Assembly (NCBI RefSeq): GCF_026646375.1
Contig: NZ_JAIPPU010000014.1
Location: forward strand, 11,873 to 75,872
Direction of reading: 5' to 3'
DNA from: Acetobacterium wieringae
Lineage (GTDB): Bacteria; Bacillota; Clostridia; Eubacteriales; Eubacteriaceae
Length of the DNA stretch: 64,000 bases
A model generated the notes under the pieces. It worked only from the letters and a program-made list of their open reading frames with translations. It was not told the origin of the DNA and did not search any database. The translations under genes were made by a program, and so were the position numbers. Below, in pieces: positions 36,700-64,000 of the stretch. Position 1 is the stretch's first letter. Each line of letters begins with the position of its first letter.

Positions 36700-36789
36700 T
36701 TTCTTTATCCTTTCGTTTTTTTTATAAATTGTTCCCTCTTTTAAAACCAGTCTTTAACCGCTTTTATAATTCCTGTCGATGTTGCCCCA

Positions 36790-38778: not shown

Positions 38779-38915
38779 TACCATTCCTTTCAAAAATAAG
38801 CTCCACTTTTCGCTATTTCTTTCTTACCCCGACGCGTTGCATTTATCAATGTTTTTTTGTATAAAAAAACAGATAATTAGTCGCATATCTGTTTTTGAGA
38901 TCTTAATATTCTTAA

Positions 38916-41193: not shown

Positions 41194-41278
41194 AATTTTA
41201 CTGCAAAGATACCCAACTCAGGCTATAATAAGTATTAACTCTAAACCGTTAATGTTTAATTTTTCTGGAGGTATTTCT

Positions 41279-46962: not shown

Positions 46963-49104
46963 TTAGACCAGCTGCCTCTTGGCATACTTATAGAAATACG
47001 CTTCTTTTTTCATCAGTTCATCATAGGTGCCGGATTCAACGATGCTGCCTTTTTCCAGCACCAGAATCCGGTCGCAATCCATAATCGTACTGAGCCGATG
47101 GGCAATCACAATTCGGGTGGCGTCGAGATTTTTCAAGCTTTCAGAAACAGTCTTCTGGGAACGGTTATCCAAGGCACTGGTGGCTTCATCAAAAAAGAGT
47201 ATTGCCGGATTGGCCGCAATCGCTCTGGCAATCAGCAGCTTCTGCCGCTGGCCTCCAGACAGGGTACCGGCACCCTCTGCCACCATGGTCTTGAGACCCA
47301 TCGGCATTTCCCGGATTTCTTCATCCATCCCGACTTTTTTAAGTAATTCCCAGATTTCATCTTCCGATAGTTCTTTTTTTGAACCGGCAATGTTTGATAA
47401 AATATCCCCGGGAATCAGTTGACTGTCCTGGAGAACTACCCCCATTTGCTTTCTGATTTCCCGGATATCGACACTTTCCAGATCAAAGCCGCCACAGTAA
47501 ATACTGCCACTGGTGGGTTTTTCAAAGCCCAATAGCAGCCGCAACAATGTTGATTTACCGCTACCAGAGGCCCCAACAACGGCCACATATTCGCCATGTT
47601 TAATATGGAGAGAAATATTATCCAGAATCGTCGCCCCCCCGGGATAATAGGAAAAGTACAGGTGCTTAATTTCAATCTCTCCCTGAATCTTGCCCGGGGT
47701 CGTTTTAAAGCTATCCACTTCGGGCACTCCGTCAATGATCGGCTTGGTGTTTTCATACTGGGGCACCACGCTATTGATGGAAATCAGGGTTTGCACCAGC
47801 CCCAGCAGCGACGAGATAAAAATGACAAAGGCCGAATTGATGGCTACAAAGCCCCCGGAGGAAATGCTATTGACACTGACATAATAGTAGATCACACACA
47901 TCGACAGAGTCGGCAGGGCAATGGTCATCAGCCGCAGTAAGGCCATCAGCTGGCCGCGTTTATACTCCACCTTCCGCTGTTTGGCATATTCCCTAACCCA
48001 TTTCAGATAAGAACGGCTTTCGGCGCCAGCCACTCGTAGCCGTGAAACCGAGGTGATGAGCTCAAAAACCATGCCCGAAATATCATTGGACATTTCCAGT
48101 GATATCCGTTGGCATTTCATTTGCGCTTTTCCGATGACCAGGGTGATGGCCACACTGACCGCCGTTAAAGCCATGGCAATGAAACCAATAGTGGTGTTGA
48201 TGGTAAAAATATACAATCCGTTGATTAGTGAAAATGAGCTGGTGATAATCATTGTGATAACATTCACCGATAGAATTTTCTGGATCATTGCAAAGCCAGT
48301 GGCCCGCATCGCCAGCGCACCCGATGAATACTGTTTAAAAAATGAGGCCGGCAGGGATAACAATTTGTCCAGCAGAGAATTCTGCAAAATTGACAATTTT
48401 CCCTGAATGCGAAGCACACAGATGTTCTGCACCATTGCAAACAAACCCCGACTGATGGCCACCGCCACCAGAATAAAACCGACGACCAAAATTGTCACCG
48501 ACTGATTCTGAGGAATCCAGACGTTGAAGGCCTCCTGCATCGCCATCGCCGGTAACAACGAGAGCAGCGCCGCCGCCAGTGCCAGCACCAGCGTTAAGAC
48601 CAGATCCAGTCGCCGAAACAGCTTTAAGCCCAGTTTCACCATTTCTAAGAAAGAAACGGGTTCCTTGGGAAGAGGTGGGTAAAAAACATAAGCCCGGTCG
48701 AATTCCGACTGAGCATCCACTTCCTGAGCTCCCCCATCACCATGCCAGCACCGATAGCGACTGGGGGATTTTGGAATCAGGGCGACCGGCTCCCCGTCTT
48801 TTGTAAACGCCAGCATCGGGCCGTTATCATGCTGATACCAATTGGCTTTAAGTTCCACCTGGCGGATTCGAAATCCCGATTCATCGGCAATCAGTTTAAA
48901 GGGATCACCACCACTAAGCTTTCTAAGCGGGGGTATTTTAACGTCAATACCCATCGCCTCAGCGACTCTGGCCACAGCGGCAATCAGGGGATTATCATCC
49001 AGAGCGGCCGATTTTTTAGGCGACAACACACTGTCGAAGGCTTTTTGGGCACTATTATCGTATTTTTTATTGAGCTGTCGGATTTCTTCTAATTTTTTTG
49101 CCAT
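46963..49104 (-). CDS. NHLP/Nif11-type bacteriocin export ABC transporter, permease/ATPase subunit without peptidase domain
   Basis: About 150-aa non-peptidase N-terminal domain, a 6-TM region, Walker A GASGSGKST, LSGGQRQ and ILFFDEATSALD. It sits 1 nt after the C39-ABC gene. Confidence 0.9.
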   Translation of the reverse strand: MAKKLEEIRQLNKKYDNSAQKAFDSVLSPKKSAALDDNPLIAAVARVAEAMGIDVKIPPLRKLSGGDPFKLIADESGFRIRQVELKANWYQHDNGPMLAFTKDGEPVALIPKSPSRYRCWHGDGGAQEVDAQSEFDRAYVFYPPLPKEPVSFLEMVKLGLKLFRRLDLVLTLVLALAAALLSLLPAMAMQEAFNVWIPQNQSVTILVVGFILVAVAISRGLFAMVQNICVLRIQGKLSILQNSLLDKLLSLPASFFKQYSSGALAMRATGFAMIQKILSVNVITMIITSSFSLINGLYIFTINTTIGFIAMALTAVSVAITLVIGKAQMKCQRISLEMSNDISGMVFELITSVSRLRVAGAESRSYLKWVREYAKQRKVEYKRGQLMALLRLMTIALPTLSMCVIYYYVSVNSISSGGFVAINSAFVIFISSLLGLVQTLISINSVVPQYENTKPIIDGVPEVDSFKTTPGKIQGEIEIKHLYFSYYPGGATILDNISLHIKHGEYVAVVGASGSGKSTLLRLLLGFEKPTSGSIYCGGFDLESVDIREIRKQMGVVLQDSQLIPGDILSNIAGSKKELSEDEIWELLKKVGMDEEIREMPMGLKTMVAEGAGTLSGGQRQKLLIARAIAANPAILFFDEATSALDNRSQKTVSESLKNLDATRIVIAHRLSTIMDCDRILVLEKGSIVESGTYDELMKKEAYFYKYAKRQLV

Positions 49105-49105
49105 C

Positions 49106-51307
49106 TTATCCCTCAGTTCTGATCAGACTTGCATACTCGCCACCTAAAGCCATTAAATCTTTATGGGTTCCCCGTTCAACCACAACGCCACAGCTTAACA
49201 CGATGATTTCATCACAATCCCGAATCGTCGACAACCGATGGGCAACCAGGATGGTGCTGATGCCCCGGCGCCGGATGTTTTCACTGACCGCAGCTTCGGT
49301 GGCCGTATCCAGAGCACTGGTAGCCTCATCCATGATCAGTATTTTGGGATTTTTGCAGAGTGCCCGGGCGATTTCCAGGCGTTGCCGTTGACCACCACTT
49401 AAGTTTTTGCCACCCTCGGTTAAGATATGGTCAAAGGCATTGGGCAGCGCCAGAATATCCTCATAAATACAGGCATCTTTGGTGGCCTGGATGACATCCT
49501 CGACGGCAATGGTCTCATCCCACATCGTAATATTATCCAGTACCGAAGCTGAATACATGACGATTTCCTGATCGACCGAACTCATTGTATTGACGCGCAG
49601 TTCAGTTGGTATTGCCTTAATATCAATGCCATCGATACGGATTTCACCACTCCATGGCTGATAAAGGGTGGTTATCATTTTGGCAATGGTCGATTTACCG
49701 CTGCCCGACGAACCCACCAGCGCAATCGAGCCACCCGCCCGGAGTGTCAGGTTCAAGCCCTGAATAATCGGAGCCGATAAGCGGTTATAACCAAAGGTCA
49801 GATCCCGGATCTCAATCTCACCTTCTAATTGATCGCAGTCAAACCCATCCAATGAAAGTTTTTCGGCTTCCAGGGCGACATCTTCGGGATACTTTTCAAC
49901 ATCATCGAGACGTGAAATATCGGCGATCATCCCCTGCAGAGCGGCGCTGGTACTGACCAGTTCGCTCATTGGCTGAGTAAAACCAGTCATCAGAGTGTTA
50001 AAGGCCACAAAGGTACCGATGGTCATCGCTCCCATTAAGACATACTCACTGCCAATGGTAAAGATCAGGGCCGTTAAAATACTGGTCATCAGAGTCGGCA
50101 GCACCGAAATAATGGCTTCCATCCGGCCCATTTTCTGTTCCACCGCCAGGGTTTCGGCACTGAGTCCAGCGATCCGGGTAAAGAAATTATCTTCTTCCCC
50201 AATCGATTTAATGGTTTCGATGGATTTTAGATTAACCATGATCCAGCCAATTGATTTTCCCTGATACTGGAGCAGTACCCGGTTGTTATCGGCATTTTTC
50301 TTGGCGGTGTACTGCAGCAGAAAAATATTGATTGCGGTGATAACAATCCCGATCAGGGTCAAGATGACATTATATTGAAACAGCAAAATCAGGTATAAAA
50401 AGGCCGTGACCAGATTGACCAGAATCCGGGCCAGATTGCTTGACAATGCGGTGGCTACCGTATTGATGCTTTGCATCCGGCTGTTGATATCCCCGGATTG
50501 GCGCTGATTAAAAAACTCCACCGGCAGCCGCAGCACGTGCCGCAGATAGGCACCGGCACTGTCAATGGCAATATAGTTCTCCATCCGCACCAGCGCGTTT
50601 TCCTTTAGCCAGTTAAGAATCGCCTGGAGTACCACCGTGTTTAACAGGATAAAAATAAAGATCAGAATATCGAATCTTTCGGTATTATTCAGGAAATAAT
50701 CGACAAAAATTTTAGCATAATTTGCGATGATCAGCCCAGGAATGACTAGTAGCACACCCAATACCAGGGCATAGAGTAGCGGTGACACGCCGGTTTGGGA
50801 AAGTCGTTTATAGAGCGCCTTCCAAACATTGGGTTTTTCTCCAGCTGGCGTGAAATCGGGTCCCGGTCGGGATTCAATGACGACTCCGGTAAACATCTGC
50901 CCCAGTTCCTCTGTGGTGATCACCCGTTGTCCCGAAGCCGGATCGCACAGATATACCTTGTCGTTTTTAAACCCTTCCAGCACTACAAAATGACTAAAAT
51001 CCCAGTGAATGATCACAGGCATTACCATTTCTTTTAACTTATCAACGGTGCAGACAAAGCCCTGGGATTCCAGACCATAAAGCCGAGCCGTTCTGGCAAT
51101 GTTCCCGGCCTTAACACCATCCCGGGATACCCCACAATCGATCCGTAGCGTTTCCAGGGTTTCGTAGCGCCCATAATAGGCCAAAATCATCGACAGTGAA
51201 GCAACCCCACATTCCACCGCTTCCATTTGCAATACAACCGGAACCTTGGCTATCTTAGGCAGTTTTTCGTGCTCATCCCAACTTTTTTCGGATTGTGATT
51301 TCGTCAT
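49106..51307 (-). CDS. NHLP/Nif11-type bacteriocin export ABC transporter with N-terminal C39 peptidase domain
   Basis: C39 catalytic region VLQMEAVECGVASLSMILAYYG and HFVVLEG. ABC motifs GSSGSGKST, LSGGQRQ and ILIMDEATSALD. Confidence 0.9.
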   Translation of the reverse strand: MTKSQSEKSWDEHEKLPKIAKVPVVLQMEAVECGVASLSMILAYYGRYETLETLRIDCGVSRDGVKAGNIARTARLYGLESQGFVCTVDKLKEMVMPVIIHWDFSHFVVLEGFKNDKVYLCDPASGQRVITTEELGQMFTGVVIESRPGPDFTPAGEKPNVWKALYKRLSQTGVSPLLYALVLGVLLVIPGLIIANYAKIFVDYFLNNTERFDILIFIFILLNTVVLQAILNWLKENALVRMENYIAIDSAGAYLRHVLRLPVEFFNQRQSGDINSRMQSINTVATALSSNLARILVNLVTAFLYLILLFQYNVILTLIGIVITAINIFLLQYTAKKNADNNRVLLQYQGKSIGWIMVNLKSIETIKSIGEEDNFFTRIAGLSAETLAVEQKMGRMEAIISVLPTLMTSILTALIFTIGSEYVLMGAMTIGTFVAFNTLMTGFTQPMSELVSTSAALQGMIADISRLDDVEKYPEDVALEAEKLSLDGFDCDQLEGEIEIRDLTFGYNRLSAPIIQGLNLTLRAGGSIALVGSSGSGKSTIAKMITTLYQPWSGEIRIDGIDIKAIPTELRVNTMSSVDQEIVMYSASVLDNITMWDETIAVEDVIQATKDACIYEDILALPNAFDHILTEGGKNLSGGQRQRLEIARALCKNPKILIMDEATSALDTATEAAVSENIRRRGISTILVAHRLSTIRDCDEIIVLSCGVVVERGTHKDLMALGGEYASLIRTEG

Positions 51308-51322
51308 GCGTTGGCCGCCTTT

Positions 51323-52147
51323 CTAGGAAATAATCAGATCAATGAGATAAAGCTGATCGGTAAAAATCGTCGCCGTGCCGGAGGTTCCTGCGATAATTTC
51401 ACCGTTAAAGCCATTGTTTTCTTTGGTCCAGATATAATTTCCCTGATCGTCCACCTTGGGATCGATAATAATCAGCATTTCGATGGGGCTCCCTTCATCC
51501 TGGGACAAGCCGCTGAGCGAAACACTACGGACAATCCCTCTTAAATAGCCATATTTATCACTGTTGACCGATTCCAGATTGATAAAAACTTTATCACCTT
51601 GCTTGACATTAATGGCCCCTTCATAGCTGGAATAGGCCTGAACCACCACCGTGGTGTCTTCGTTTTCCCGTTTGACAATTTTACCGAGCGTCGAGTTTTT
51701 GGGAATGTATGCCCCATCCTGAAAACTCAAGTCGGCGATCACACCACTTTCCATGGCCACAATCATGGTTTGCCGTTTCACCAGACTTTTTAGCTGATCG
51801 GTCAAGACAGTTCCGTTACTGATCGATGTTGCCGTTGCTTCGGTGGTCAAAACCCCCAGCAAATCACCCCGTTTGACATAGTCGCCATTGGAGACGGCCA
51901 ACTGCGACAGGATTCCTTCATTTTCAACCACCACATCCACCGTGCCTTCACCATAGGCTACCACCGCATCGGTGGTGGTGGTAATATTAATGGGAACGGT
52001 CACGGCGTAAATCATCACGCCCACCAGAAAAATAATAATACCCAATAAAATCAGCAGATTTCCCGGACCGATGACTGTCATCAGGGCCGCATGTTCACTT
52101 TTGGGAGTGCCTTTATCCTCTTTATTCCGAAATATCGATTTATTCAC
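51323..52147 (-). CDS. HlyD-like secretion/adaptor protein of the NHLP/Nif11 export system (short form)
   Basis: Single N-terminal TM helix and a lipoyl-like hairpin (VSNGDYVKRGDLLGVL ... INVKQGDKVFI). GTG start with GGGGGAGG SD, overlapping the upstream gene by 8 nt. Confidence 0.75.
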   Translation of the reverse strand: MNKSIFRNKEDKGTPKSEHAALMTVIGPGNLLILLGIIIFLVGVMIYAVTVPINITTTTDAVVAYGEGTVDVVVENEGILSQLAVSNGDYVKRGDLLGVLTTEATATSISNGTVLTDQLKSLVKRQTMIVAMESGVIADLSFQDGAYIPKNSTLGKIVKRENEDTTVVVQAYSSYEGAINVKQGDKVFINLESVNSDKYGYLRGIVRSVSLSGLSQDEGSPIEMLIIIDPKVDDQGNYIWTKENNGFNGEIIAGTSGTATIFTDQLYLIDLIIS

Positions 52148-53291
52148 CGCTGTTGCCTCCCCCTGTTATATTATTTTTGGGCACCAATTGATCATTTAAA
52201 TAGATCTTCTGAAATACCGGTATCCCAGTGATCAACCGTTTATTAAAGCTTAAGCCGCCATAGACGGTCTCAAAACTGTTTTCCTCCAGCACTTTTCTGA
52301 TCGCCTCAATTTTCAGACTTTGGGCCTGGTTGGCCGCATCAGCTGCCAGATGCATCGCCATGTAGGCCTGGGCGGCCGGCAGATCCGGTGTCAAACCATA
52401 AGCCTGCTGATAGGCCTGAATAAATGCGGCCTCGGCACCAGTGGTAGCGGTATTGTTAAAATAACTGGTGACCTGGATCAGGTTTTTCATACTTTGAGGA
52501 ATTGTATACGCTTGAATCTCAATGTCATAACTGGCAAAGATTGGCCGGGTGTTGCCGGTTTTTTCCAAATACTCATAAAGCGCTGTGATATCATTGCCGA
52601 CACAGGCACTAACAATCGCCTGAGCCCCCATACTGTCCCATTTTTTGACATAATAGCGGAAATAATCGAGGTTTGGCAGATACGAAACTGCATCAACAAT
52701 TTCAATGCCCGTCGCATTGGCATGTTCTTCAACCTTTTGAATAAAGTCTTTACCATAAGTATTGCCAGCACTATGAACAACCGCAATCCGGCTGATTCCC
52801 TGAGCCGCGATGCTGCCAACCAGCTCACTGGCCATGGCATCGTCGGACGGCGCACAAAGATAAGCCCCCGGATTTTGGGCTAAATTCAATTTCGAACTGG
52901 CAATAATCGGGGCAAAGAGGAGCTTATTGTTCTGGTGATAAATGCTCCCCACCTTTAGTACATCGTCGGTACTGCGATGGCCAATGACAATCGGGAAATC
53001 CGAATTTTCGGCGATTCGAGTGGCTACCTCTACTGCCGTATTTATGTTGTTACCATCATCATTGTAGTTTACTTCAATGGACTGATTAAGAATTCCGCCC
53101 TGATCGTTGATCTCCTGGGCGGCCAGTTCAATGCCATTTTTGAAGGATTGGCTATAATCTTCCGAGAAAGGGTACACCACATCGACTGACAATTTACCGT
53201 TTTCCTCAGTCTTGCCGGTACAGCCAGCACCGAGCAAGCCGCCGATCATCAGGATGGTCAGGACGGCTAAGATCATCCGTTGTTTTTTCAT
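52140..53291 (-). CDS. Orphan LivJ-type (Peripla_BP_6) substrate-binding lipoprotein
   Basis: Lipobox LGAGC|TGK. The branched-chain-amino-acid-binding-protein-like sequence reads NGIELAAQEINDQGGILNQSIEVNYNDDGNN...PIVIGHRSTD. AAGGAG SD. Confidence 0.85.
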   Translation of the reverse strand: MKKQRMILAVLTILMIGGLLGAGCTGKTEENGKLSVDVVYPFSEDYSQSFKNGIELAAQEINDQGGILNQSIEVNYNDDGNNINTAVEVATRIAENSDFPIVIGHRSTDDVLKVGSIYHQNNKLLFAPIIASSKLNLAQNPGAYLCAPSDDAMASELVGSIAAQGISRIAVVHSAGNTYGKDFIQKVEEHANATGIEIVDAVSYLPNLDYFRYYVKKWDSMGAQAIVSACVGNDITALYEYLEKTGNTRPIFASYDIEIQAYTIPQSMKNLIQVTSYFNNTATTGAEAAFIQAYQQAYGLTPDLPAAQAYMAMHLAADAANQAQSLKIEAIRKVLEENSFETVYGGLSFNKRLITGIPVFQKIYLNDQLVPKNNITGGGNSGE

Positions 53292-53316
53292 GTCCGTCTC
53301 CTTATTATTAGATTAA

Positions 53317-53378
53317 GTAATTGCGAAACTGCACCCAAAGCAATCATTGTTCGATGCCTTTTCATTTCGAAATTACCT
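53317..53378. repeat. Palindromic intergenic element (short copy of 13192-13328)
   Basis: GTAATTGCGAAA...TTTCGAAATTAC terminal inverted repeat (one mismatch). The core is GAAACTGCACCCAAAGCAATCATTGTTCGATG. Confidence 0.5.
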
Positions 53379-53396
53379 ATTGAGATAATTCTTAGT

Positions 53397-55100
53397 CTAA
53401 ATAAACGCCGAAAATAAAATCAGATAGCGGTCACTTAGGCTTTTTAGCGATATGTTCAGATCCACCGGGGCACAATTTAGCCTGGCTGCCGTTTCTGCGA
53501 TGGTAAAGCGGCCAGCGCCAGCCAGAATGTCAAGTTCGACCGGACTGAGACTATTAATATCCAGCAGCGAAAAATCCGGAATCATCTGGATCACTGCGTT
53601 ATTTTTCTCTGGCTCGCTCAGTTCATGCCATTCTTTTAACAGCCCTTGATACTCAGTCAGTTTTTGATAATAGGCTACCATGATCGGGTCTTTGGCATAG
53701 ATAAATTTAAGGTATCCGGCGGCAATGCCATAGTTAAAGGCCAGCTTAAAGTCAGTGTAAATCCGTGCTTTAGGAATCAAACCCTGTTTAAACTGCTGTT
53801 TCATTTTATTTGAAACTGCCGTAATAAACCGGGAACGCGCCATGCAGATTTCCGGCAACGACAGCGCCTCGGTATGGTTGACTGGAAAATCCTCGAGGTT
53901 GGTCAGACATTCCCGATCTTCCAGCGTGATTCCAAATTTTTCGGGATGCTGATAAATTTGAGTGCCGGGCAGGGGCATAATAAAAGTTGTCGATAGATCC
54001 AGCATCCCCGGGGCCAGATCCAACAATTCCAGTACTGTTTTGGTGGTCTCAGCCAGGGTTTCCGCAGTTTCAAAGGCTCCGCCAATAATATAGTTCCCGG
54101 TTAACTGGGGTAAACCCTCGGCGTAGCAAAGCTCAACCACTTTTTTAATATCAGCGGGGCTAGCCTGTTTGCCATAGGCTTTGAGCACATCAGCCACCCC
54201 GGTTTCCATCCCGATCTGCATTCGCACCATGCCGCTGTCAATCATTTCCCGGATCAGCTCGGGGTGTTTGATTAAAAAGCCGGGATGGCCTTCACAAAAC
54301 CAGACAAAATCATATTTTTCCCGTAAAACTTTCAGGCCAGCTAAGATCTGCTTCAGTCTAACCGGATGGGTGGTAAAGGTATCGTCACAAAAAAACAGGT
54401 AGCGGGGGCGGGTGCTTCTTTTTAGTCGTTCTTCAATTTCAGCCAGGACATCTTCGGCCTGACGCAGCCGCAGATTTTTGGAATTCCCGCCCTCAAAACA
54501 AAAGGCACAACGATAAGGACAACCTCTTGCCGTAATAACCGACAACAGCGGCCGCTCCTGAAACTCCAGGACATCTTCGTTGCGGGGCCATTCGTATCTG
54601 GCAAAATCCTCCAGATAAACGTAATCGGCGTTTTGATCGGCTCGAAGCTCGCCCGGAACAAATACATCTTCACCCCGAACCCTGGCACTTAACCAGGCCA
54701 AGAGGGATTCTTCGCCTTCGCCCTTAATAATCGCATCGGCCTGATATGTTTTTAGATCTTTTTTCGTCATATGCAGGGTTTGGGGGCCGCCTACCACCAC
54801 ATAAAAATCATGCTGCTTTTTTAGCTCACTGCAAATCGCCGCCACTGCCGAACGATTGTCAAAATCACAGTAGAAACAGACCGCAAAGAGGCGGTCTGTC
54901 AAATTTTTGATGGTTTTTACCACATCGGTGGTAATGCCGGTGTACGCTTTGGCCTTAAAACCATTGGCATTGAGCTGGGCCGCCAGGGTAAGAATTCCCA
55001 GATTTTCAATCATTTCAAAGGTTCGTCCCCGGATCATCCGTTGGGTATAAATGAGTAAAACTTGGGGTTTGCTGCTTATGGTCTCCGGTATAAAATCCAC
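53397..55100 (-). CDS. B12-binding-domain radical SAM protein (module D) with RRE-like C-terminal tail
   Basis: N-terminal Rossmann-like part with CDFDN, VVGGPQT and KGEGEE. rSAM cluster ARGCPYRCAFCFEG. GGAGGG lies 6 nt before GTG 55100. 25-nt overlap with module C. Confidence 0.85.
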   Translation of the reverse strand: MDFIPETISSKPQVLLIYTQRMIRGRTFEMIENLGILTLAAQLNANGFKAKAYTGITTDVVKTIKNLTDRLFAVCFYCDFDNRSAVAAICSELKKQHDFYVVVGGPQTLHMTKKDLKTYQADAIIKGEGEESLLAWLSARVRGEDVFVPGELRADQNADYVYLEDFARYEWPRNEDVLEFQERPLLSVITARGCPYRCAFCFEGGNSKNLRLRQAEDVLAEIEERLKRSTRPRYLFFCDDTFTTHPVRLKQILAGLKVLREKYDFVWFCEGHPGFLIKHPELIREMIDSGMVRMQIGMETGVADVLKAYGKQASPADIKKVVELCYAEGLPQLTGNYIIGGAFETAETLAETTKTVLELLDLAPGMLDLSTTFIMPLPGTQIYQHPEKFGITLEDRECLTNLEDFPVNHTEALSLPEICMARSRFITAVSNKMKQQFKQGLIPKARIYTDFKLAFNYGIAAGYLKFIYAKDPIMVAYYQKLTEYQGLLKEWHELSEPEKNNAVIQMIPDFSLLDINSLSPVELDILAGAGRFTIAETAARLNCAPVDLNISLKSLSDRYLILFSAFI

Positions 55101-56827: not shown

Positions 56828-56837
56828 CTGCACCGTT

Positions 56838-56897
56838 CCCCCTTTAAACTACTGACGGTTATTCCAATCAGTACTTTGAAGGGGAAATCTCCCCTTC
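56838..56897 (-). promoter_or_regulatory. Two overlapping alternative RNA hairpins downstream of precursor gene 1
   Basis: H1 is GAAGGGGA-AATC-TCCCCTTC (56878-56897). H2 pairs CCCCTTTAAACTACTG (56838-56853) with CAGTACTTTGAAGGGG (56869-56884) with 2 mismatches. The two share the GAAGGGG segment. Confidence 0.5.
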
Positions 56898-56904
56898 AGT
56901 TGTT

Positions 56905-57177
56905 CTAACTCATCGCCGTTTCGGTTGCGACAAATGCATAATCCACACCAACAATACTTAGGCCACCGGCCGCCTGATCCAATTGATCGTCGCTGATTGG
57001 CTGTTTGTCTTTTGCTTCTTTAAATGCTGCTTTAAATTCAGCTGCCGAGCAGGTATAGCCCAATTTGGCAACAATCACATCAAATTCTGCGCCTGTTTTG
57101 GCTTCATTGATCTGTTTTGCCAAAACCTCATCCGTTAATACTTTTGCCGCCAATGCTCTTGCACCATCGATACTCAT
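56905..57177 (-). CDS. Nif11-leader RiPP precursor peptide 1
   Basis: The 72-aa leader MSIDGARALAAKVLTDEVLAKQ...ISDDQLDQAAGG is Nif11-type with a double-Gly site. The core is LSIVGVDYAFVATETAMS. SD is AGGAGGAAGAAC-ATG. Confidence 0.85.
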   Translation of the reverse strand: MSIDGARALAAKVLTDEVLAKQINEAKTGAEFDVIVAKLGYTCSAAEFKAAFKEAKDKQPISDDQLDQAAGGLSIVGVDYAFVATETAMS

Positions 57178-57326
57178 GTTCTTCCTCCTTTCTCTACTAT
57201 TTCAACTGAATCATGAATTGAGTCAGTTAATTTTAAAAACAGGTAGACAATCACACTGCATTAAAAATTTTACTCGTAATCGCGTCTAATTCAGTCACTT
57301 TTTTATTTATCGCTCCTTATTTTACT

Positions 57327-57395
57327 CCCCTTTAAATTACTGACTCTATCTGAATGATCATATGAGTCAGTAATTTGAAGGGGAAAATCCCCTTC
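57327..57395 (-). promoter_or_regulatory. Two overlapping alternative RNA hairpins downstream of precursor gene 2
   Basis: H2 pairs CCCCTTTAAATTACTGACTC (57327-57346) with GAGTCAGTAATTTGAAGGGG (57364-57383), 20 bp with 1 mismatch. H1 is GAAGGGG-AAAAT-CCCCTTC (57377-57395). GAAGGGG is shared, so the two are mutually exclusive. Confidence 0.5.
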
Positions 57396-57407
57396 GTTGT
57401 TTAATGA

Positions 57408-57680
57408 CTAAGCTCGAGCGGTTTGTGTTGCTGTGAATGCGTAGTCTACGCCAACAATACTTAAGCCACCAGCAGCCTGATCCAGTTGATCATCACTGAT
57501 TGGCTGTTTTTCCTGTGCTTCTTTAAAAGCAGCATCAAATTCAGCTGCAGTACAGCTGTAACCCAATTTTGCGACCACTGCATCAAATTCTGCTTCAGTT
57601 TTAGCACCATCAAGTTGTTTTGCCAAGGCCTCATCGGTTAAAACTTTTGCGGCCAATGCTTTTGCACCATCAATACTCAT
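57408..57680 (-). CDS. Nif11-leader RiPP precursor peptide 2
   Basis: The leader is nearly identical to precursor 1 and ends ...DQLDQAAGG. The core is LSIVGVDYAFTATQTARA. Confidence 0.85.
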   Translation of the reverse strand: MSIDGAKALAAKVLTDEALAKQLDGAKTEAEFDAVVAKLGYSCTAAEFDAAFKEAQEKQPISDDQLDQAAGGLSIVGVDYAFTATQTARA

Positions 57681-57693
57681 GTTCTTCCTCCTA

Positions 57694-57780
57694 AAAAGAT
57701 TTTGGCTAAATCACAAAATGTGTCAGCCAATATTTAAAATTAAATTGATCCCATAGATCAACTAATTTTCCATGGAATTC
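57694..57780 (-). repeat. Duplicated, non-functional copy of the 3' end of rSAM gene B (58111-58197)
   Basis: 81 of 87 nt are identical to 58111-58197 in my manual alignment. The minus strand translates as EFHGKLVDLWDQFNFKYWLTHFVI-stop, versus EFHGKLIDLLDQFDFKYWLTHFVI-stop in the intact gene. Confidence 0.8.
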
Positions 57781-57825
57781 TTCCTGGTTGTGAGCTGAAT
57801 CCCCAGGTCTTAAAACCAATTCGAC

Positions 57826-58095
57826 TCAGGGAACGATTGGTGTCATAACAAACGGGTAGTCGATCCCCACCAATGTTATTCCACCAGCAGCATGATCCAA
57901 TTCCTCATCACTAATCGGTTGTTTTGCTTGTGCTTCTTTAAAAGCGGCCATGAATTCAGCAACTGAACAACTATAACCCCATTTTGCAACAACGTCATCA
58001 AATTCTGCTTCTGTTTTTGTGTCGCGAATCTGTTTTTCCAACACTTCATCCGTTAATACTTTTGCGGCTAATGCTCTGGCACTATCAATACTCAT
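57826..58095 (-). CDS. Nif11-leader RiPP precursor peptide 3
   Basis: Leader MSIDSARALAAKVLTDEVLEKQ...ISDEELDHAAGG. Core ITLVGIDYPFVMTPIVP. Confidence 0.85.
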   Translation of the reverse strand: MSIDSARALAAKVLTDEVLEKQIRDTKTEAEFDDVVAKWGYSCSVAEFMAAFKEAQAKQPISDEELDHAAGGITLVGIDYPFVMTPIVP

Positions 58096-58122
58096 GTCGA
58101 TCCTCCTTTTAAAAGATTTTGG

Positions 58123-59835
58123 CTAAATCACAAAATGGGTCAGCCAATATTTAAAATCAAATTGATCCAGCAGATCAATTAATTTTCCATGGAATTCAGC
58201 CGGATCGTGATACGGGCCACCAAAATGTTCATATAATTCGACTTCGATCTCGGCCAGACTTCTTTTCCCGGCACAACGCAGCAGCAGCTCATACTCCAGC
58301 GGTGATAGCGCCATCCCATCGAGTTTGGGGAAGCCTTCGGTAAAGGTCATCGTGCGCCATAATTCAAAGGTGCGTTGGGGATAATCGCTGGAAAAATCCA
58401 TCGATCCTTCAAAGGCCTGCCCTTCCTTTAAATACAGCACGTAAAAGTATTCATAGGCTCTGGGATTGGCAGCAATTTCCTCAAACCAGCGGCTGCGGAT
58501 GCCATATTTCAGGGCGGCGTTAAATTGCTTTTGCACCACCTCATTTTTTAACGCATGGTTTTTGATTTTATTCTGCATACTTTGGCGGATCACCTTGTTG
58601 AGTTCCTGACGCATGTTCATGATCTGATCCTGCCTACATCCCACTGGAGTGACAAAGGGATAATCATCACCGGACAAGCGGCCCGACTGATCATGCAGTA
58701 CTAAATTAAACTTCTCCGGATTATCCATGATTTCGGTACCCGGATACGCTCTTAAAAAGCCGGTGATGATATCAATGATACCCGGAGCCCGATCGATCAG
58801 CGTTTTTATCAGGGTTGCTGTTGCCCCCGGGCGTTCCGCTGGCCCGCCAACAATAAAATTGGTGGCAATCTGGGTCAGCCCACAATCAGCGGCATAGGTG
58901 ACAAATTCAACGATATCATCAATCTTGACATGCTTGTTATAGGCATCAATCACCTGCTGATCGCCCGACTCAATACCAATCTGCAACCGGATCAGTCCGG
59001 CATCGATCATCGTTGGCAGAATGTCCATCCAGTTTTTGATTCGGCCGACATGGCATTCGCAATACCAGACCAGGTCGCGATCTTTGCGGATTTCCTTCAT
59101 CCCCCGGCAGAATTCTTCAATCCGCTCACGGTTGAGGGTAAAGGCATCGTCCATAATAATAATGTATTTCAAATTTGGGTTATTTTGTAAATTCAATCTG
59201 ATTTCATCGAGTACCAGCGGGATGCTGCGCAACCGCACTTGCTGTTTTCCGGGGCTGGGGGCACAATAGGCACATTGGAAGGGACAACCCCGACCAGTAA
59301 AGATCAGCTTGCCGTAGTCGTGATCACTATGCAGGGAAGCGTGGTAGGCGGGCAACGGCAGCGCATCCAGATCTTTGATAATTTCCGGCGGGGTGACCGT
59401 AAAAACCCCATCCCTGATCATCCCCAGTCCGTTAATCGCCCTTAACTCGCCCTCATCGTTTAACACCGCCTTTAAGAGCATCGGCAGCGACACTTCACCC
59501 TCACCGCTTAAAATATAATCGGCCTGGCTTTCTTTTAGAAATTGCCCATCCAGCCCAATGCTCTGAGGGCCGCCGACGATAACGGGGATCTCCCAGCCGT
59601 TTTTAATTTTTCGGGACAAATCAGCAATCAGCGAAACATTATCAAAATCACAGGAAAAGCCCACAGCATCCGGCTGGTTCTGTTTGACTTGTTCCAACAG
59701 CTCTTCCGGTTTACCATGAAAAACCAGGGGTTCAAAGCCGGCTTCTTCCAGAGCTCCGGCCAGATAAAAGAGCCCCAGATAATCGTGAACCCTAGTTTCA
59801 TATTTCTTTGATACATTGCATAGGAGTATCTTCAT
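58123..59835 (-). CDS. B12-binding-domain radical SAM protein (module B) with RRE-like C-terminal tail
   Basis: CDFDN, IVGGPQS, SGEGEV and GRGCPFQCAYCAPS. C-terminal LSPLEYELLLRCAGKRSLAEIEVELYEHFG. Confidence 0.85.
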   Translation of the reverse strand: MKILLCNVSKKYETRVHDYLGLFYLAGALEEAGFEPLVFHGKPEELLEQVKQNQPDAVGFSCDFDNVSLIADLSRKIKNGWEIPVIVGGPQSIGLDGQFLKESQADYILSGEGEVSLPMLLKAVLNDEGELRAINGLGMIRDGVFTVTPPEIIKDLDALPLPAYHASLHSDHDYGKLIFTGRGCPFQCAYCAPSPGKQQVRLRSIPLVLDEIRLNLQNNPNLKYIIIMDDAFTLNRERIEEFCRGMKEIRKDRDLVWYCECHVGRIKNWMDILPTMIDAGLIRLQIGIESGDQQVIDAYNKHVKIDDIVEFVTYAADCGLTQIATNFIVGGPAERPGATATLIKTLIDRAPGIIDIITGFLRAYPGTEIMDNPEKFNLVLHDQSGRLSGDDYPFVTPVGCRQDQIMNMRQELNKVIRQSMQNKIKNHALKNEVVQKQFNAALKYGIRSRWFEEIAANPRAYEYFYVLYLKEGQAFEGSMDFSSDYPQRTFELWRTMTFTEGFPKLDGMALSPLEYELLLRCAGKRSLAEIEVELYEHFGGPYHDPAEFHGKLIDLLDQFDFKYWLTHFVI

Positions 59836-59850
59836 TTTATTACCCTTTTT

Positions 59851-62800
59851 CTAGAACGGAACAACAAGAAGCCAGTATTTTTTATCAAAAACTTTCAGGG
59901 TTTCAATGATCCGTTCCATTAATTCATCCTGCCCTTCGCCAAATGGTTTACCAAAACGCTCATAAAGCAGCTCGGTCATGGTGGCAATGGTGCTTTTACC
60001 GGTTGCATATTTCATGATTTCATATTCAAAGGGTGATAATGCCTCCCCCCACAACAGCGGATAGCCCTGGGAGAAATCGACATCCCGCCACATCTCAATT
60101 AACCGCTGGGGCCGCCAGTGCGGCAATTCCTGGCGATCCACATCGACAATCCGACTGGCGGCCTCCCGGGCCAGCATCGTGTAATAAGCCGTCAATGTCG
60201 GTTTATGATGGGAAATTATGTTAATCCAATATTTGGGGCCGTTGGCAGCCAGTGATGTTTTATAACATCTTAGAATATCTTCATGACTGAGCTCGCCGTT
60301 ATTCAACATGATTTTGACCTCATCGACAAAACTCTGGAGATATTCCTGATAGGCCCCCATGATTTCCCGACGATCCATGGTTTCACTGTCCATTAGCGGG
60401 TAATCCGAAATACTGCCCAATCCCTGCCGGTCATAAATCGTCAGACCGTATTTTTGGGGATACAGGCCAATATCGGTCATCGGGTAAGGCATCACAATGC
60501 TGGGGGCAATTTCCATCATCCCCGGTCCCAATCGCAGCAGCTTCGCCCCAAAGGCCTTGTTCTTTTCAATATGTTCCCGGTTTTCAATGGGCCCGCCCAC
60601 CAGCAGCGCTCCAAAGACCTGTTGCACCCCGGCATCATAGGCTGCTTTTACGACCGTTTCAACCATTTCCGGGGAAATATTTTTGCGGTAAACTTTGAGC
60701 ATCTCCTTATCCACCGTTTCAATACCAATTTGCAGCCGGTTAAGGCCCGCATCCACCATCGCCTTTAATACTTCCGGTCGTCGGCTTAAGGACACGACAT
60801 CGGCCTCACAATAGAACTGGAAGGGCCGGATTGCCTGCAAGACTTTGGCTTCCCGGCAAAACGCATCCAGCCACTTAGGATTGGTGACCAGGGTATCATC
60901 ACAGAATTTAAAATAACTCAGCTCCGGGTATTTTTGCAGAAAGTACTTCATTTCGGCAATGACGTTGTCCACACTGCGCTGTCGCATCGGCCGTTTTAAG
61001 GCCCCTTCATGGCAGAAGACACAGTGGTAGGGGCAACCCCGGCTGCTCATCAGATAGAGACTGCTAAAATCAATCGGGGTAATGCTTTTATCGTAGGCCG
61101 GGAAAGGCAACTCATCAAGGTTTTCCACCACCGGGCCTTCGCCCATGTCAATTGCCTCACCATGCTCATTAAGATAAAAGATACCGGGAATCCCTACCAG
61201 ACTTCGCTGTTCTTTCAAGGCCGACAGCACCGCCACCATCGCCAGTTCGCCTTCGCCTCTGACAATGGCTTTGGCTTGCGATTGCCGCAGATAATCTTCA
61301 TCCAGAGAAATTGCTTCCGGGCCGCCAATCAGCACCGGAAGCTGATAGGTTTCGGTAATGGCCGCACTGACTTTTTTAACCACGTGCTTGTTTTCAAAAT
61401 CCACCGAAAAGCCGATCCCACAAATCTCATGAAACGGGTAGCGTTTCAGGTAATCGATGGTCTGATCCGGGCGACATTCACAGACAATGGCATCATAGCC
61501 ATTGGCATCGAGATAGCTGGCCAGACCATAAATGCCCAGAAAAGCGCCATTTCGGCTGAAGCCGGCAATTTCCATCCCAATTGTTGATAATTTAAAAAGT
61601 ATAAACTTATTTTTCACGCTGTCCTCCCCGGTTGTTTCCCGAACCTGCCACTGCTGATCAGCTGCCTGGGCGGTCAATGGCCCCGACAACACACACATGC
61701 CGACCTGCTCCAATTTTTTAATCGTCTGCAGCAGATGCGCTTTAAAGGCAGTAAAATTTTCAAAGCTGTGCTGGTATGCCGGGAATAGTATTTCTGCCAT
61801 CTCCAGCATCGATAGTTTTCCGGAGCTGTATTTTAATACTTCAAATTCAAAGGGGGAATAGACAAATCCATTTAATACCGGAATCTCGGCCGCCAGCTCG
61901 GGGGTTAGCGACAGCAGTGCAATCCGCTGGGGATGGGTGGCAAATACCGTCTTCTCGTCATAATCTTTCATCAGCTTGTCGCCCCGGATCCGAGCCTTGT
62001 ACTGAGCATCAAAATAGGGGTAGCGGGAGTAGGCCAGGCCCTGCCACATTCCACTGAGGCCGTATTTTTCACTGAGGGCATAGCTTTTTAGAATCACTTC
62101 GTCGGGGATTTCACCATCACTGAGCATTTTTCGCATCAGCCGGGTATTCATTTCGAAAAATTCATTCCGGGCGGCGCAGATTTCCTCAATACTCAAGGTG
62201 GCGGTTTCAATCACCGGAAAATCCCCCACTGATGTCAGGGCTTCTTTGTCCCTGACACAAATGCCAAAAGCTTCGGGATTTTTGGACATCGCCGTTTCCG
62301 GGAAAGGCATATAGAAGGTGCTGACCACCTCCACCATCCCCCGACCGGCTTTAATCATCTGATTGACGGTATCAAAGGTATAGTCCAGACTCTCCCGGGT
62401 TTCCAGAGCGCCGCCAATAATGATGTTGCCGACCAACTGGGGCAGTCCGGCAGCTTGACAGATTTCAATGACCTCAAAGAGGCCTTCCCGTTTGATCTTC
62501 TTGTTATAGATATCAATAATATGTTGATTACAGCTTTCAATGCCGATCTGCATCCGCACCAGCCCGGCATCGACCATCATTTTGACAATTTCCGGGTATT
62601 TAATGACGATGTTGACATGGGCATCGGCAAACCAGACAAAATCATGCTCCTTCCGCAGCTCTTTTAATTGTTCGCAAAAACTTCGCACCCGTTCCTTATC
62701 GAGGGTGAAGGTATCATCACCGAAAAAGATGTACTTCACGTTAGGGTTTTGTTTCAGCCGACAGCGGATTTCCTGCATCACATTTGCGACACTGCGGCGT

Positions 62801-63441
62801 CTTACATTTTTGCTGTTTCCCCCTTCATAACAAAAAGAACAGTGGAAAGGACACCCTCGTCCTGACATGACTGCCATATGATTGATGCCCTGATGTTGGG
62901 CTGATTTAATTGTCCCGGTAATAATTGGCAGTTCATCAAGATTTTCAATGGCCGGATAAATGCCATTATCATAATAACTGCCATCACTTCGGAGTGAACA
63001 GAGTCCCGGAATACGCTCCCAGTTTTCGATTGCTTCATTTTGCAGGGCATGGATGGCCTCATAAAGTGAATATTCCCCTTCACCCCGCATAATTGCGTCT
63101 GCCTGGCTGGCCCGCAAAAAGGCCTCCCCTAAACCAACGGTCTGGGGCCCGCCTACCAGCACAGTGGCACCGTACCGCCTTTTAATTTCCCGGGAAAAAC
63201 TTTCAACCGCTGACTGATTCTCATAGTCACAGTATAAACCGACCACCGTATTACTATCGGAGCCGGTTGCTGCCAGAAACTCCAGCCCTTTTAACAGCTC
63301 CCCTGAAAAAACCGCCACCTCAATCCCTTTACTGGCCATCATTTCCGCCAGCGACATATGACCAATCGGCTCAATTTGGGTAATCGAATGGGTTCGGGTT
63401 CCGCGATGAATCAGCATCAGTTTCAAGTTGATCGTTTTCAC
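59851..63441 (-). CDS. Fusion of two complete B12-binding radical SAM modules (A1 61618-63441, A2 59851-61617)
   Basis: A1 has CDYEN, LVGGPQT, RGEGEY and GRGCPFHCSFCYEG. A2 has VDFEN, LIGGPEA, RGEGEL and SRGCPYHCVFCHEG. GGAGG lies 6 nt before GTG 63441 (VKTINLKLMLIH...). The 29 extra track codons lack an SD. Confidence 0.85.
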   Translation of the reverse strand: MKTINLKLMLIHRGTRTHSITQIEPIGHMSLAEMMASKGIEVAVFSGELLKGLEFLAATGSDSNTVVGLYCDYENQSAVESFSREIKRRYGATVLVGGPQTVGLGEAFLRASQADAIMRGEGEYSLYEAIHALQNEAIENWERIPGLCSLRSDGSYYDNGIYPAIENLDELPIITGTIKSAQHQGINHMAVMSGRGCPFHCSFCYEGGNSKNVRRRSVANVMQEIRCRLKQNPNVKYIFFGDDTFTLDKERVRSFCEQLKELRKEHDFVWFADAHVNIVIKYPEIVKMMVDAGLVRMQIGIESCNQHIIDIYNKKIKREGLFEVIEICQAAGLPQLVGNIIIGGALETRESLDYTFDTVNQMIKAGRGMVEVVSTFYMPFPETAMSKNPEAFGICVRDKEALTSVGDFPVIETATLSIEEICAARNEFFEMNTRLMRKMLSDGEIPDEVILKSYALSEKYGLSGMWQGLAYSRYPYFDAQYKARIRGDKLMKDYDEKTVFATHPQRIALLSLTPELAAEIPVLNGFVYSPFEFEVLKYSSGKLSMLEMAEILFPAYQHSFENFTAFKAHLLQTIKKLEQVGMCVLSGPLTAQAADQQWQVRETTGEDSVKNKFILFKLSTIGMEIAGFSRNGAFLGIYGLASYLDANGYDAIVCECRPDQTIDYLKRYPFHEICGIGFSVDFENKHVVKKVSAAITETYQLPVLIGGPEAISLDEDYLRQSQAKAIVRGEGELAMVAVLSALKEQRSLVGIPGIFYLNEHGEAIDMGEGPVVENLDELPFPAYDKSITPIDFSSLYLMSSRGCPYHCVFCHEGALKRPMRQRSVDNVIAEMKYFLQKYPELSYFKFCDDTLVTNPKWLDAFCREAKVLQAIRPFQFYCEADVVSLSRRPEVLKAMVDAGLNRLQIGIETVDKEMLKVYRKNISPEMVETVVKAAYDAGVQQVFGALLVGGPIENREHIEKNKAFGAKLLRLGPGMMEIAPSIVMPYPMTDIGLYPQKYGLTIYDRQGLGSISDYPLMDSETMDRREIMGAYQEYLQSFVDEVKIMLNNGELSHEDILRCYKTSLAANGPKYWINIISHHKPTLTAYYTMLAREAASRIVDVDRQELPHWRPQRLIEMWRDVDFSQGYPLLWGEALSPFEYEIMKYATGKSTIATMTELLYERFGKPFGEGQDELMERIIETLKVFDKKYWLLVVPF

Positions 63442-63601: not shown

Positions 63602-64000
63602 TCACTTCTCATTTTTTGTTAAATCCCCGATTCTGATAAACGGTGCTGGCTTTATGCCATGCGGCGCAATCATCTTTTCCATCCAGATCATGTCATACCA
63701 GGTTTCCAGCTTGTAGCCACATTTAGAAAAATGACCAATGGTTTGATAGCCCAGGTGTTCATGAAAACCGATGCTGTCGGGATTGGGATAGGCAATACAG
63801 GCATAGAGATTCGTGATGTTCTGCTTTTCTAAAACTGCCTCAAGGGCCTGATAGAGCTTTTTACCCACCCCACTTTGACGGCTGTGCTGTTTAACATAGA
63901 TGGTGGTTTCTACCGCCCAGTCGTAGGCCGCCCGGTTTTTAAACTCAGAGGCATAGGCATAGCCGAGGATTTCATCTTCCCTGACGGCCACCAGATAGGG
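63602..64000 (-). CDS. GNAT family N-acetyltransferase (phosphinothricin-acetyltransferase-like), 5' end beyond window
   Basis: ...ILGYAYASEFKNRAAYDWAVETTIYVKQHSRQSGVGKKLYQALE...GFHEHLGYQTIGHFSKCGYKLETWYDMIWMEK is typical of PAT/YwnH-type GNATs. The reading frame stays open to the window edge. Confidence 0.8.
   Translation of the reverse strand, partial: PYLVAVREDEILGYAYASEFKNRAAYDWAVETTIYVKQHSRQSGVGKKLYQALEAVLEKQNITNLYACIAYPNPDSIGFHEHLGYQTIGHFSKCGYKLETWYDMIWMEKMIAPHGIKPAPFIRIGDLTKNEK

Follow-up and report, generated by a model that had tools for sequence, protein, structure and literature searches.

A Nif11-leader peptide operon of Acetobacterium wieringae with five predicted B12-binding radical-SAM modules, and its relatives in other anaerobes

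Overall organization of the operon

The window analysed here, a stretch of 64,000 nucleotides (nt) of Acetobacterium wieringae, harbors at 46963-63441 a tightly packed array of minus-strand genes which, according to a check of the open reading frames and their translations, forms one operon. It encodes, in the order of transcription, a fused double radical S-adenosylmethionine (rSAM) protein, a further enzyme of this kind (rSAM_B), three precursor peptides, the enzymes rSAM_C and rSAM_D, a substrate-binding protein (SBP), an HlyD-like protein and the two ATP-binding cassette (ABC) transporters ABC1 and ABC2. In a first-pass annotation made from the sequence alone, the locus had been described as an operon for a peptide that is made on ribosomes and then modified post-translationally (RiPP), with Nif11-type leaders, and this reading is supported by the analysis reported here. 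The combination also occurs outside the window: it belongs to a conserved family found in several phyla, each cluster having five to eight such enzymes. A chance arrangement is not an issue, because the same arrangement recurs in 15 independent loci.

All genes of the first-pass annotation are present on the minus strand at the positions it had assigned, and its starts for the double rSAM protein and for rSAM_C are preferred here as well. The reading frame of the double rSAM protein can be followed from GTG 63528, but GTG 63441 appears to be the better start, because a GGAGG ribosome-binding site is located 8 nt upstream of it and because the same start is found in relatives. For rSAM_C, ATG 56827, which is preceded by AAAGGGGGAA, is the most likely start. 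Pfam and NCBIfam scans of all operon genes and both flanks place a GNAT acetyltransferase gene upstream and, downstream, a rubrerythrin gene in convergent orientation, and the borders of the operon are therefore those given earlier. As had been claimed, these scans revealed no lanthipeptide enzyme (dehydratase or cyclase), no YcaO protein, no rSAM enzyme of the SPASM or epimerase type and no separate protease gene, and with no other tailoring enzyme found in the operon the B12-binding rSAM modules are left as the sole tailoring candidates. An Rfam scan of the whole window returned zero families at the gathering score, and therefore no cobalamin or SAM riboswitch controlling the operon. Consensus scans for promoters and terminators were dropped, as their matches were no denser than in shuffled sequence.

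The B12-binding radical-SAM modules

The five modules are distributed over four minus-strand genes. The fused double protein (gene 59851-63441) comprises module A1 (61678-63441; motifs CDYEN, GGPQ, GEGE and GRGCPFHCSFC) and module A2 (59851-61620; motifs VDFEN, GGPE, GEGE and SRGCPYHCVFC), each with a C-terminal segment resembling a RiPP recognition element (RRE). It is followed by rSAM_B (58123-59835, 570 residues, GRGCPFQCAYC) and, beyond the precursor genes, by rSAM_C (55076-56827, 583 residues from ATG 56827, GRGCPFGCTFC) and rSAM_D (53397-55100, 567 residues, ARGCPYRCAFC), whose reading frame overlaps with that of rSAM_C by 25 nt and whose C-terminal domain is shorter. In a full-length alignment of about 570 residues modules A1, A2, B, C and D are 25-34% identical pairwise, in line with the five paralogues sharing Rossmann-part motifs that had been proposed. 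Common to all of them are CDF/YxN, GGPQ/E and GEGE in the N-terminal Rossmann part, the RGCPxxCxxC site, whose CxxxCxxC cysteine triad is intact in five of five modules, and a C-terminal extension. The motifs quoted in the first-pass annotation (five CxxxCxxC sites, CDF/YxN, GGPQ/GGPE, GEGE and QMEAVECGVASL) are all found in the translations.

A search for the families PF04055 and PF02310 had been set beforehand as a refutation test, and both match all four rSAM proteins, the double one twice. For PF04055 the E-values range from 1e-17 to 1e-43. PF02310 lies above its gathering score in the fused A protein (two stretches), in rSAM_B, which is a class-B radical SAM enzyme according to its Pfam matches and AlphaFold2 model, and in rSAM_C; for module D it reaches 26.5 bits, below the gathering score of 32.1, but D still aligns with its paralogues over the full length.

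The AlphaFold2 model of rSAM_B has a pLDDT of 93.4. Foldseek lists as its top matches MgmA, in first place, as well as AprD4, CysS, TsrM, OxsB and TokK, with E-values of 1e-16 to 1e-20 for MgmA, CysS, TsrM, OxsB and TokK. The nearest solved structures by sequence are the same class-B proteins (E-values 1e-8 to 1e-17). The fold of rSAM_B, as modelled, is that of a class-B radical SAM enzyme. MgmA is the methyl-coenzyme-M-reductase glutamine C-methylase, and hence a peptide C-methylase.

None of the NCBIfam models, including the RiPP models for ApyD (NF050148) and PoyB/C-type enzymes (TIGR03975), reaches its cutoff for any module, and therefore the modules belong to no curated subfamily. The best names returned are ApyD, HpnJ, BchE, PhpK and a ladderane-lipid enzyme, all of them several-fold below their cutoffs. 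The ApyD model is the best match of module B (110 bits versus a cutoff of 750) and the second-best match of the fused A1-A2 protein (218 bits over two stretches, the best-scoring one in A2). Over all modules it scores 43.6-217.6 bits, while TIGR03975 scores 29.9-134.1 bits versus a cutoff of 281.85.

In the model of rSAM_B the last 90 or so residues fold into three short strands and then three helices, and the C-terminal segment carries the conserved signature LSPLEYELLxxCxGK. Modelled in isolation (pLDDT 77.6), this domain was compared with 350,542 chains of the PDB, where its four best matches are PqqD, leader-bound TbiB1 and lasso-peptide B1 proteins, the TbiB1 and B1 matches superposing with a root-mean-square deviation of 2.4-2.9 Å. 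Judged from these models, every module probably carries an RRE.

The precursor peptides

The three precursor genes are located on the minus strand at 57826-58095 (precursor 1, 89 residues), 57408-57680 (precursor 2, 90 residues) and 56905-57177 (precursor 3, 90 residues). All three products exceed the cutoffs of both Nif11 models, with 36.8-43.8 bits versus 23.8 for PF07862 and 41.1-45.6 bits versus 32.3 for TIGR03798. A Nif11 leader of about 72 residues ends in GG and is followed by a core of 17-18 residues. The cores are ITLVGIDYPFVMTPIVP in precursor 1, LSIVGVDYAFTATQTARA in precursor 2 and LSIVGVDYAFVATETAMS in precursor 3, and with lengths of 17, 18 and 18 residues, no cysteine and a GG site in front of each, leaders and cores are as they had been read originally. 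The junction between leader and core is ...DQAAGG followed by L or ...DHAAGG followed by I in all three precursors. In some distant relatives AG, VG or LG is found at the cleavage site instead of GG.

The core follows a near-invariant pattern, [L/I]-[S/T]-x-V-G-[V/I]-D-Y-x-F, which is present in 87 of the 102 related precursors retrieved by a profile search. The main core type reads L-S-I-V-G-V-D-Y-A-F-(T/V)..., whereas the second type, ITLVGIDYPFVMTPIVP, for which relatives with this core type exist, keeps V4, G5, D7, Y8 and F10. Residue counts were taken over 71 distinct cores, mostly 17-18 residues long. Asp7 and Tyr8 are invariant (71/71 each), and Gly5 (70/71), Val4 (68/71) and Phe10 (66/71, with Ile in 4/71) nearly so. 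Position 1 is occupied by Leu (60/71) or Ile (10/71), position 2 by Ser (63/71) or Thr (8/71), position 6 by Val (54/71) or Ile (13/71), and position 15 mostly by Thr (56/71). When the precursors of Acetobacterium are compared with those of Heliomicrobium, Eremiobacterota and Wallbacteria, the leaders are 39-43% identical versus 53-87% for the first 15 core residues. By these identities the core is more conserved than the leader, which is the reverse of the usual RiPP pattern.

Between precursors 1 and 2 a 100-nt minus-strand segment (57694-57793) is found that is 89% identical to 58111-58210, a duplicated remnant of the 3' end of rSAM_B together with its downstream ribosome-binding site. Because this copy lies downstream of precursor 1, the extra precursor gene is attributed to a recent tandem duplication. 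In the reference locus of A. wieringae (L001) precursor 1 is absent, and locus L003 has a type-2 precursor.

Directly 3' of precursor 2 and of precursor 3 the minus strand can form a stable RNA hairpin, at 57376-57396 (-16.4 kcal/mol, z-score -5.45) and at 56876-56899 (-19.0 kcal/mol, z-score -4.59), respectively. The two hairpins are near-identical and GC-rich (GAAGGGGA..TCCCCTTC) and have no T-run. They are probably transcript-stabilising or attenuating elements and may raise the ratio of precursor to enzyme transcript.

Distribution and synteny of related clusters

A scan of the genome collection with one protein returned only seven close relatives, and the distant clusters were reached via proteins from homology searches. 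An exact-sequence look-up with rSAM_B returned no record. One A. wieringae protein shares 96% identity with rSAM_B, and synteny links the operon to contig NZ_LKEU01000027 of A. wieringae DSM 1911. Orthologues of rSAM_B with 75-85% identity are present in A. malicum, A. woodii, A. bakii, A. paludosum and Candidatus Formimonas warabiya, further ones in Thermoclostridium (73%), Anoxynatronum (69%) and, as a partial match, Synergistaceae (76% over 94% of the query). Precursors that are 79-84% identical are found in Sporomusa malonica and Aminivibrio.

In 15 of 15 independent loci, including transporter-free neighbourhoods, the precursor is located inside the rSAM block. Clusters with five to eight paralogues each recur in Peptococcaceae, Thermoclostridium, Heliomicrobium, Eremiobacterota, Wallbacteria and metagenomes. 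Around one Nif11 precursor there are six B12-rSAM genes in Heliomicrobium undosum, at least five in an Eremiobacterota genome and six in Wallbacteria, while two metagenomes from JGI and one NCBI genome assembly have eight, at least five and seven, respectively.

Neighbour-joining trees of all modules resolve six clades, denoted A1, A2, B, X, C and D. The window contributes one module to each of A1, A2, B, C and D, whereas clade X is without a member from Acetobacterium. Orthologues are 40-45% identical as opposed to 25-34% for paralogues, and the clades are old orthologous groups. The fusion of A1 and A2 is confined to the group of Acetobacterium, Formimonas and Thermoclostridium; elsewhere the two are separate genes, A2 being a stand-alone gene in the six-clade clusters. 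In three clusters clade C has undergone a two- or three-fold duplication. Heliomicrobium has retained the gene order A1-A2-B-precursor-(X)-C-D, which is rearranged in Eremiobacterota, Wallbacteria and the metagenomes.

The export genes are found in different places around these blocks. They lie downstream as SBP-HlyD-ABC1-ABC2 in Acetobacterium and upstream as HlyD-like-ABC1-ABC2 in Formimonas, and none is located nearby in several other clusters. Because the export genes vary around it, the conserved unit is the precursor together with the enzymes.

A search among the cores for a feature that tracks clade X was negative; up to residue 12 the core of Eremiobacterota, whose cluster includes X, and that of Acetobacterium, whose cluster does not, are the same. 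The clade-X enzymes at L011 19661-21812 and L012 9769-11921 (both Wallbacteria) and at L015 11750-14380 (NCBI genome assembly) are about 880-910 residues long, and the two from Wallbacteria contain an insertion with a second C-terminal RRE-like segment. In an eight-paralogue cluster, L013 15773-17524 (minus strand) encodes a full-length paralogue (215 bits versus the module profile) that is devoid of the CxxxCxxC triad and of the GGPQ and GEGE motifs and keeps the C-terminal RRE-like domain. This degenerate paralogue may be a pseudoenzyme or a leader-binding chaperone.

Export genes, accessory genes and the rest of the window

The last four genes of the operon, all on the minus strand, are those of the SBP and the exporter. 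The SBP (52140-53291) has the Peripla_BP_6 fold (PF13458, E-value 2.5e-44) and a lipoprotein-like signal peptide (…LLGAGC). The HlyD-like membrane-fusion or adaptor protein (51323-52147) is short, with 274 residues, and matches HlyD_3 and Biotin_lipoyl_2. ABC1 (49106-51307) is a C39-peptidase/permease/ATPase exporter (TIGR03796, 902.6 bits versus 853.3; PF03412, E-value 2.8e-32), and ABC2 (46963-49104) is the partner permease/ATPase of the NHLP export pair (TIGR03797, 774.9 bits versus 709.4). The earlier assignment of a complete HlyD/C39-ABC/ABC cassette thus stands for both transporters but not for the adaptor, which fails TIGR03794 with 60.8 bits versus 156.2 and matches only about a quarter of the 421-position model. 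By these scores the adaptor is HlyD-like, shortened and outside the TIGR03794 family.

The SBP is conserved in all Acetobacterium loci and may be a recurring accessory, not a chance neighbour, with immunity, receptor or no function at all as candidate roles. A Peripla_BP_5/6 protein 27% identical to the SBP of the window is encoded at L013 2893-4068, beside an ABC transporter in a distant family member.

Directly upstream of the operon, the GNAT acetyltransferase (63602-63991, minus strand) resembles arsinothricin and phosphinothricin N-acetyltransferases (ArsN1b, 124.9 bits versus a cutoff of 210). As a tailoring enzyme it was rejected, since it is kept only in three of five Acetobacterium-type loci (L001, L002 and L005) and in none of the others. 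Two adjacent beta-lactamase-family (PF00144) genes of about 665 residues each are located in the window at 34705-38793, 8-12 kb from the operon, and two further PF00144 genes (385 and 677 residues) lie directly upstream of a Wallbacteria cluster (L011 6407-9736). Their presence near both clusters may be coincidence. The rest of the window consists of ordinary Acetobacterium genes (3898-6804, 13360-14610, 21669-24758, 25547-27187, 31618-33081 and 41252-42160), namely those of an SBP_bac_3 hybrid sensor kinase, the [FeFe]-hydrogenase maturase HydF, a ChW-repeat VanY carboxypeptidase and three GGDEF or GGDEF-EAL cyclic-di-GMP proteins, two of which have a 7TM sensor domain.

Proposed biosynthesis and alternative readings

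On balance, the operon probably serves the biosynthesis of a phylogenetically widespread Nif11-leader RiPP family of anaerobes, with site-specialised C-methylation of the core, cleavage after GG and export. Each enzyme would dock the Nif11 leader of the precursor via its own C-terminal PqqD/RRE-like domain and would make one site-specific radical modification of the core, the favoured reaction being the C-methylation of unactivated carbons in a methylcobalamin-dependent manner. Val4, Val/Ile6, Asp7, Tyr8 and Phe10 are the candidate sites, and with them each of the five enzymes would have one conserved side chain as its counterpart. The C39 domain of ABC1 would cut the hypermodified peptide after GG, ABC1 and ABC2 would export it together with the HlyD-like adaptor, and the SBP lipoprotein could act as an accessory factor, in immunity or as a receptor. 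C-methylation is favoured because most of the characterised peptide-modifying class-B enzymes perform it (PoyB/C, the bottromycin enzymes, ApyD, TmoD and MpcB), because the closest solved structure is that of a peptide C-methylase, because ApyD, a Tyr beta-methylase, is the best family match of module B and the second-best of the fused protein, and because the core resembles the clavusporin core with its seven to eight beta-methyl groups.

Several points weigh against this assignment, in its chemistry as well as in leader docking and export. The mapping of five enzymes onto five residues is our own speculation. MpcB and PoyC each install many methyl groups alone, and by analogy a set of five to eight enzymes may hint at more diverse reactions. 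A class-B fold guarantees neither methylation nor the use of cobalamin, whose binding is predicted here: BchE and OxsB perform other chemistry, PbsB makes a biaryl cross-link, and AprD4, among the closest structures, shares the fold but is a diol dehydratase, one that is not known to use cobalamin. The NCBIfam scores are all far below the cutoffs, and no characterised homologue fixes the chemistry. Regarding the C-terminal domain, the PDB matches have TM-scores of 0.52-0.70 but weak Foldseek E-values of 0.07-0.8. Furthermore, a Pfam scan of the five C-terminal domains gave no match at E <= 10 for four of them, and for the fifth only a weak winged-helix match (HTH_47, E-value 0.21), and a profile search of PDB sequences with this domain returned noise only, without an RRE or PqqD. 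Finally, an exporter is missing beside several relatives, so that a role outside the cell may not apply to every member of the family.

With operon and substrate left unchanged, some or all modules could instead be non-methylating and yield a constrained macrocycle or polycycle, which is possible though not probable. Tyr8 and Phe10 (i,i+2) could be cross-linked by a C-C or C-O bond; further candidates are an Asp7-Tyr8 ring, a cyclisation or a rearrangement. There is precedent in PbsB, a B12-rSAM enzyme that links two aromatic residues in i,i+2 distance to a biaryl in a RiPP (PMC12257519), but PbsB requires prior ortho-hydroxylation by an MNIO enzyme, and the operon scans revealed no MNIO. The repertoire of class-B enzymes also includes ring formation, ring contraction, thioether formation and dehydration; most of the characterised peptide B12-rSAM enzymes, on the other hand, are C-methylases, as is the enzyme of the closest solved structure. 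The invariance of D7 and Y8 and the near-invariance of G5 and F10 would suit a cross-linked scaffold better than methyl decoration, whereas the four cores out of 71 with Ile at position 10 exclude a universal Tyr-Phe biaryl link. The number of enzymes, five to eight, exceeds the known need, considering that one enzyme performs the seven to eight methylations of clavusporin. A bolder reading, which we regard as unlikely, holds that five to eight co-evolving paralogues build a new scaffold around G-x-D-Y-x-F, either by distinct radical reactions or by repeated alkylation together with the closing of rings on Asp7, Tyr8 and Phe10. The product would then represent a new class of RiPPs whose physiological role is conserved among corrinoid-rich anaerobes (for example acetogens, heliobacteria, Synergistota, Eremiobacterota and Wallbacteria).

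A second question, compatible with either chemistry, concerns the role of the product, which could be a conserved physiological molecule (a signal, surfactant, morphogen, membrane-active factor or peptide-derived cofactor) and not a conventional bacteriocin. Across phyla the core varies less than the leader, and in 71 variants it is nearly fixed, as in the cofactor-type RiPPs pyrroloquinoline quinone and mycofactocin and opposite to the hypervariable Nif11 cores of, for example, the prochlorosins. Several relatives are without an exporter beside the cluster, but those of Acetobacterium and Formimonas possess a dedicated C39-ABC exporter. Clavusporin, chemically the nearest analogue, is a surfactant with a role in development, while the occurrence of two core types in one operon (LSIVGVDYAF... 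and ITLVGIDYPFVMTPIVP) and of a recent precursor duplication is typical of families of secreted natural products. In addition, the patchy distribution, with 75% identity between the enzymes of Acetobacterium and Peptococcaceae, suggests horizontal transfer rather than core metabolism. On the whole, a conserved physiological molecule instead of a bacteriocin seems to us rather unlikely. Very hard to credit is a scheme in which the rSAM enzymes act on a non-peptide substrate (a sugar, lipid or cofactor), while the Nif11 peptides are bacteriocins that stay unmodified and have only the operon in common with these enzymes. Several of the best NCBIfam matches, HpnJ, the ladderane-lipid rSAM enzyme and BchE, would fit such substrates, all far below cutoff. 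Against it stand the precursor embedded among the rSAM genes in all 15 loci, irrespective of transporters, and the PqqD/RRE-like C-terminal domain predicted on every module; moreover, no genes for the biosynthesis of a small-molecule substrate were found in the Pfam and NCBIfam scans of the operon.

Comparison with known systems

The first-pass annotation had seen no characterised RiPP family in this combination, and none emerged here, neither as an NCBIfam model at cutoff nor as a characterisation in the full-text literature. A 2019 genome paper lists the Acetobacterium cluster as an antiSMASH bacteriocin cluster (PMC6925170), which is the sole direct mention that full-text searches brought up, and no characterisation of the product was found in them, subscription-only papers lying outside the search. 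Core strings such as VGVDYAF gave no paper in a full-text search, and Nif11 in combination with B12, cobalamin, radical or Acetobacterium returned only reviews and one genome paper.

Like the proteusins, represented by polytheonamide, the operon combines a leader of the NHLP/Nif11 superfamily that is large and protein-like, class-B rSAM enzymes for unactivated carbons of a hydrophobic core and export of the NHLP type, a system reportedly described by Haft et al. in 2010. Proteusins differ in their NHLP leader, a core of about 48 residues and two B12-rSAM enzymes (PoyB and PoyC), as opposed to a Nif11 leader, 17-18 residues and five to eight paralogues here. They also have a PoyD-type epimerase, a dehydratase and an N-methyltransferase, none of which is found in the operon. 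In contrast to them, each enzyme here probably has an RRE-like C-terminal domain of its own, and the cutoff of TIGR03975 is not reached.

The clavusporins, encoded by mpc of Streptomyces clavuligerus, are short peptides with many beta-branched residues that receive seven to eight beta-methylations from a B12-rSAM enzyme (PMC10849626). Their core KPSVGITITVPFR is short, hydrophobic and beta-branched as is LSIVGVDYAFTATQ here, and in both cases a conserved core goes along with a widespread operon. However, the clavusporin pathway employs a single enzyme, MpcB, with a CX7CX2C site and a DUF5825 partner, whereas five to eight enzymes with CX3CX2C sites and no DUF5825 in the operon are observed here. 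Its leader is short and cut by an S9 peptidase, in contrast to a Nif11 leader for which the C39 domain is the candidate protease, and its hosts are actinomycetes instead of strict anaerobes.

ApyD, the aminopyruvatide enzyme (NF050148), is a B12-rSAM protein with a fused RRE that beta-methylates a Tyr of a RiPP precursor. With the modules it would share its action on a RiPP precursor and the fused RRE, and it is the best curated match of module B. However, the operon has no counterpart of the P450, the MNIO and the methyltransferase that the apy pathway also requires, and the apy precursor is without a Nif11 leader. The biphenomycin-like enzyme PbsB (PMC12257519) is comparable in that it acts on a conserved aromatic-x-aromatic core motif and that some related clusters contain more than one B12-rSAM enzyme. 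It differs in needing MNIO-made ortho-tyrosines, an arginase and a hydroxylase, which are not encoded here, in its motif, FHAFRF versus GxDYxF, and in making a cross-link, where methylation is the leading assumption for the present operon. The Nif11 lanthipeptides of the prochlorosin type have a Nif11 leader with GG, paired C39-ABC and ABC exporters and several precursors per locus in common with the operon, but rely on the lanthionine synthetase ProcM and hypervariable, Cys-rich cores, whereas no lanthipeptide enzyme and Cys-free, near-invariant cores are found here.

Only a handful of peptide-acting enzymes has been characterised within the class-B radical SAM superfamily, which has more than 220,000 members. 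Five to eight diverged enzymes that apparently read one substrate of about 18 residues form a natural set from which the evolution of site selectivity in C-H functionalising enzymes could be learned, and which could serve as a toolbox for alkylating peptides at a late stage. The conservation of the core over the leader across phyla of strict anaerobes suggests a conserved biological role of the product. The cluster family is a strong target for genome mining, and its wider spread raises the interest rather than lowering it. Since corrinoids are made by Acetobacterium and A. woodii is amenable to genetic work, the question is directly testable.

Taken as a pathway, the operon appears to work like those of the proteusins and clavusporins while being a member of neither. 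The scores for PoyB/C-type and ApyD enzymes stay below cutoff, and DUF5825, an MNIO and an epimerase were not found in the operon. Tailoring of NHLP/Nif11 RiPPs by class-B rSAM enzymes is known; distinctive of the family described here are the number of enzymes per short core, a probable RRE on each of them and a core that is more conserved than its leader.

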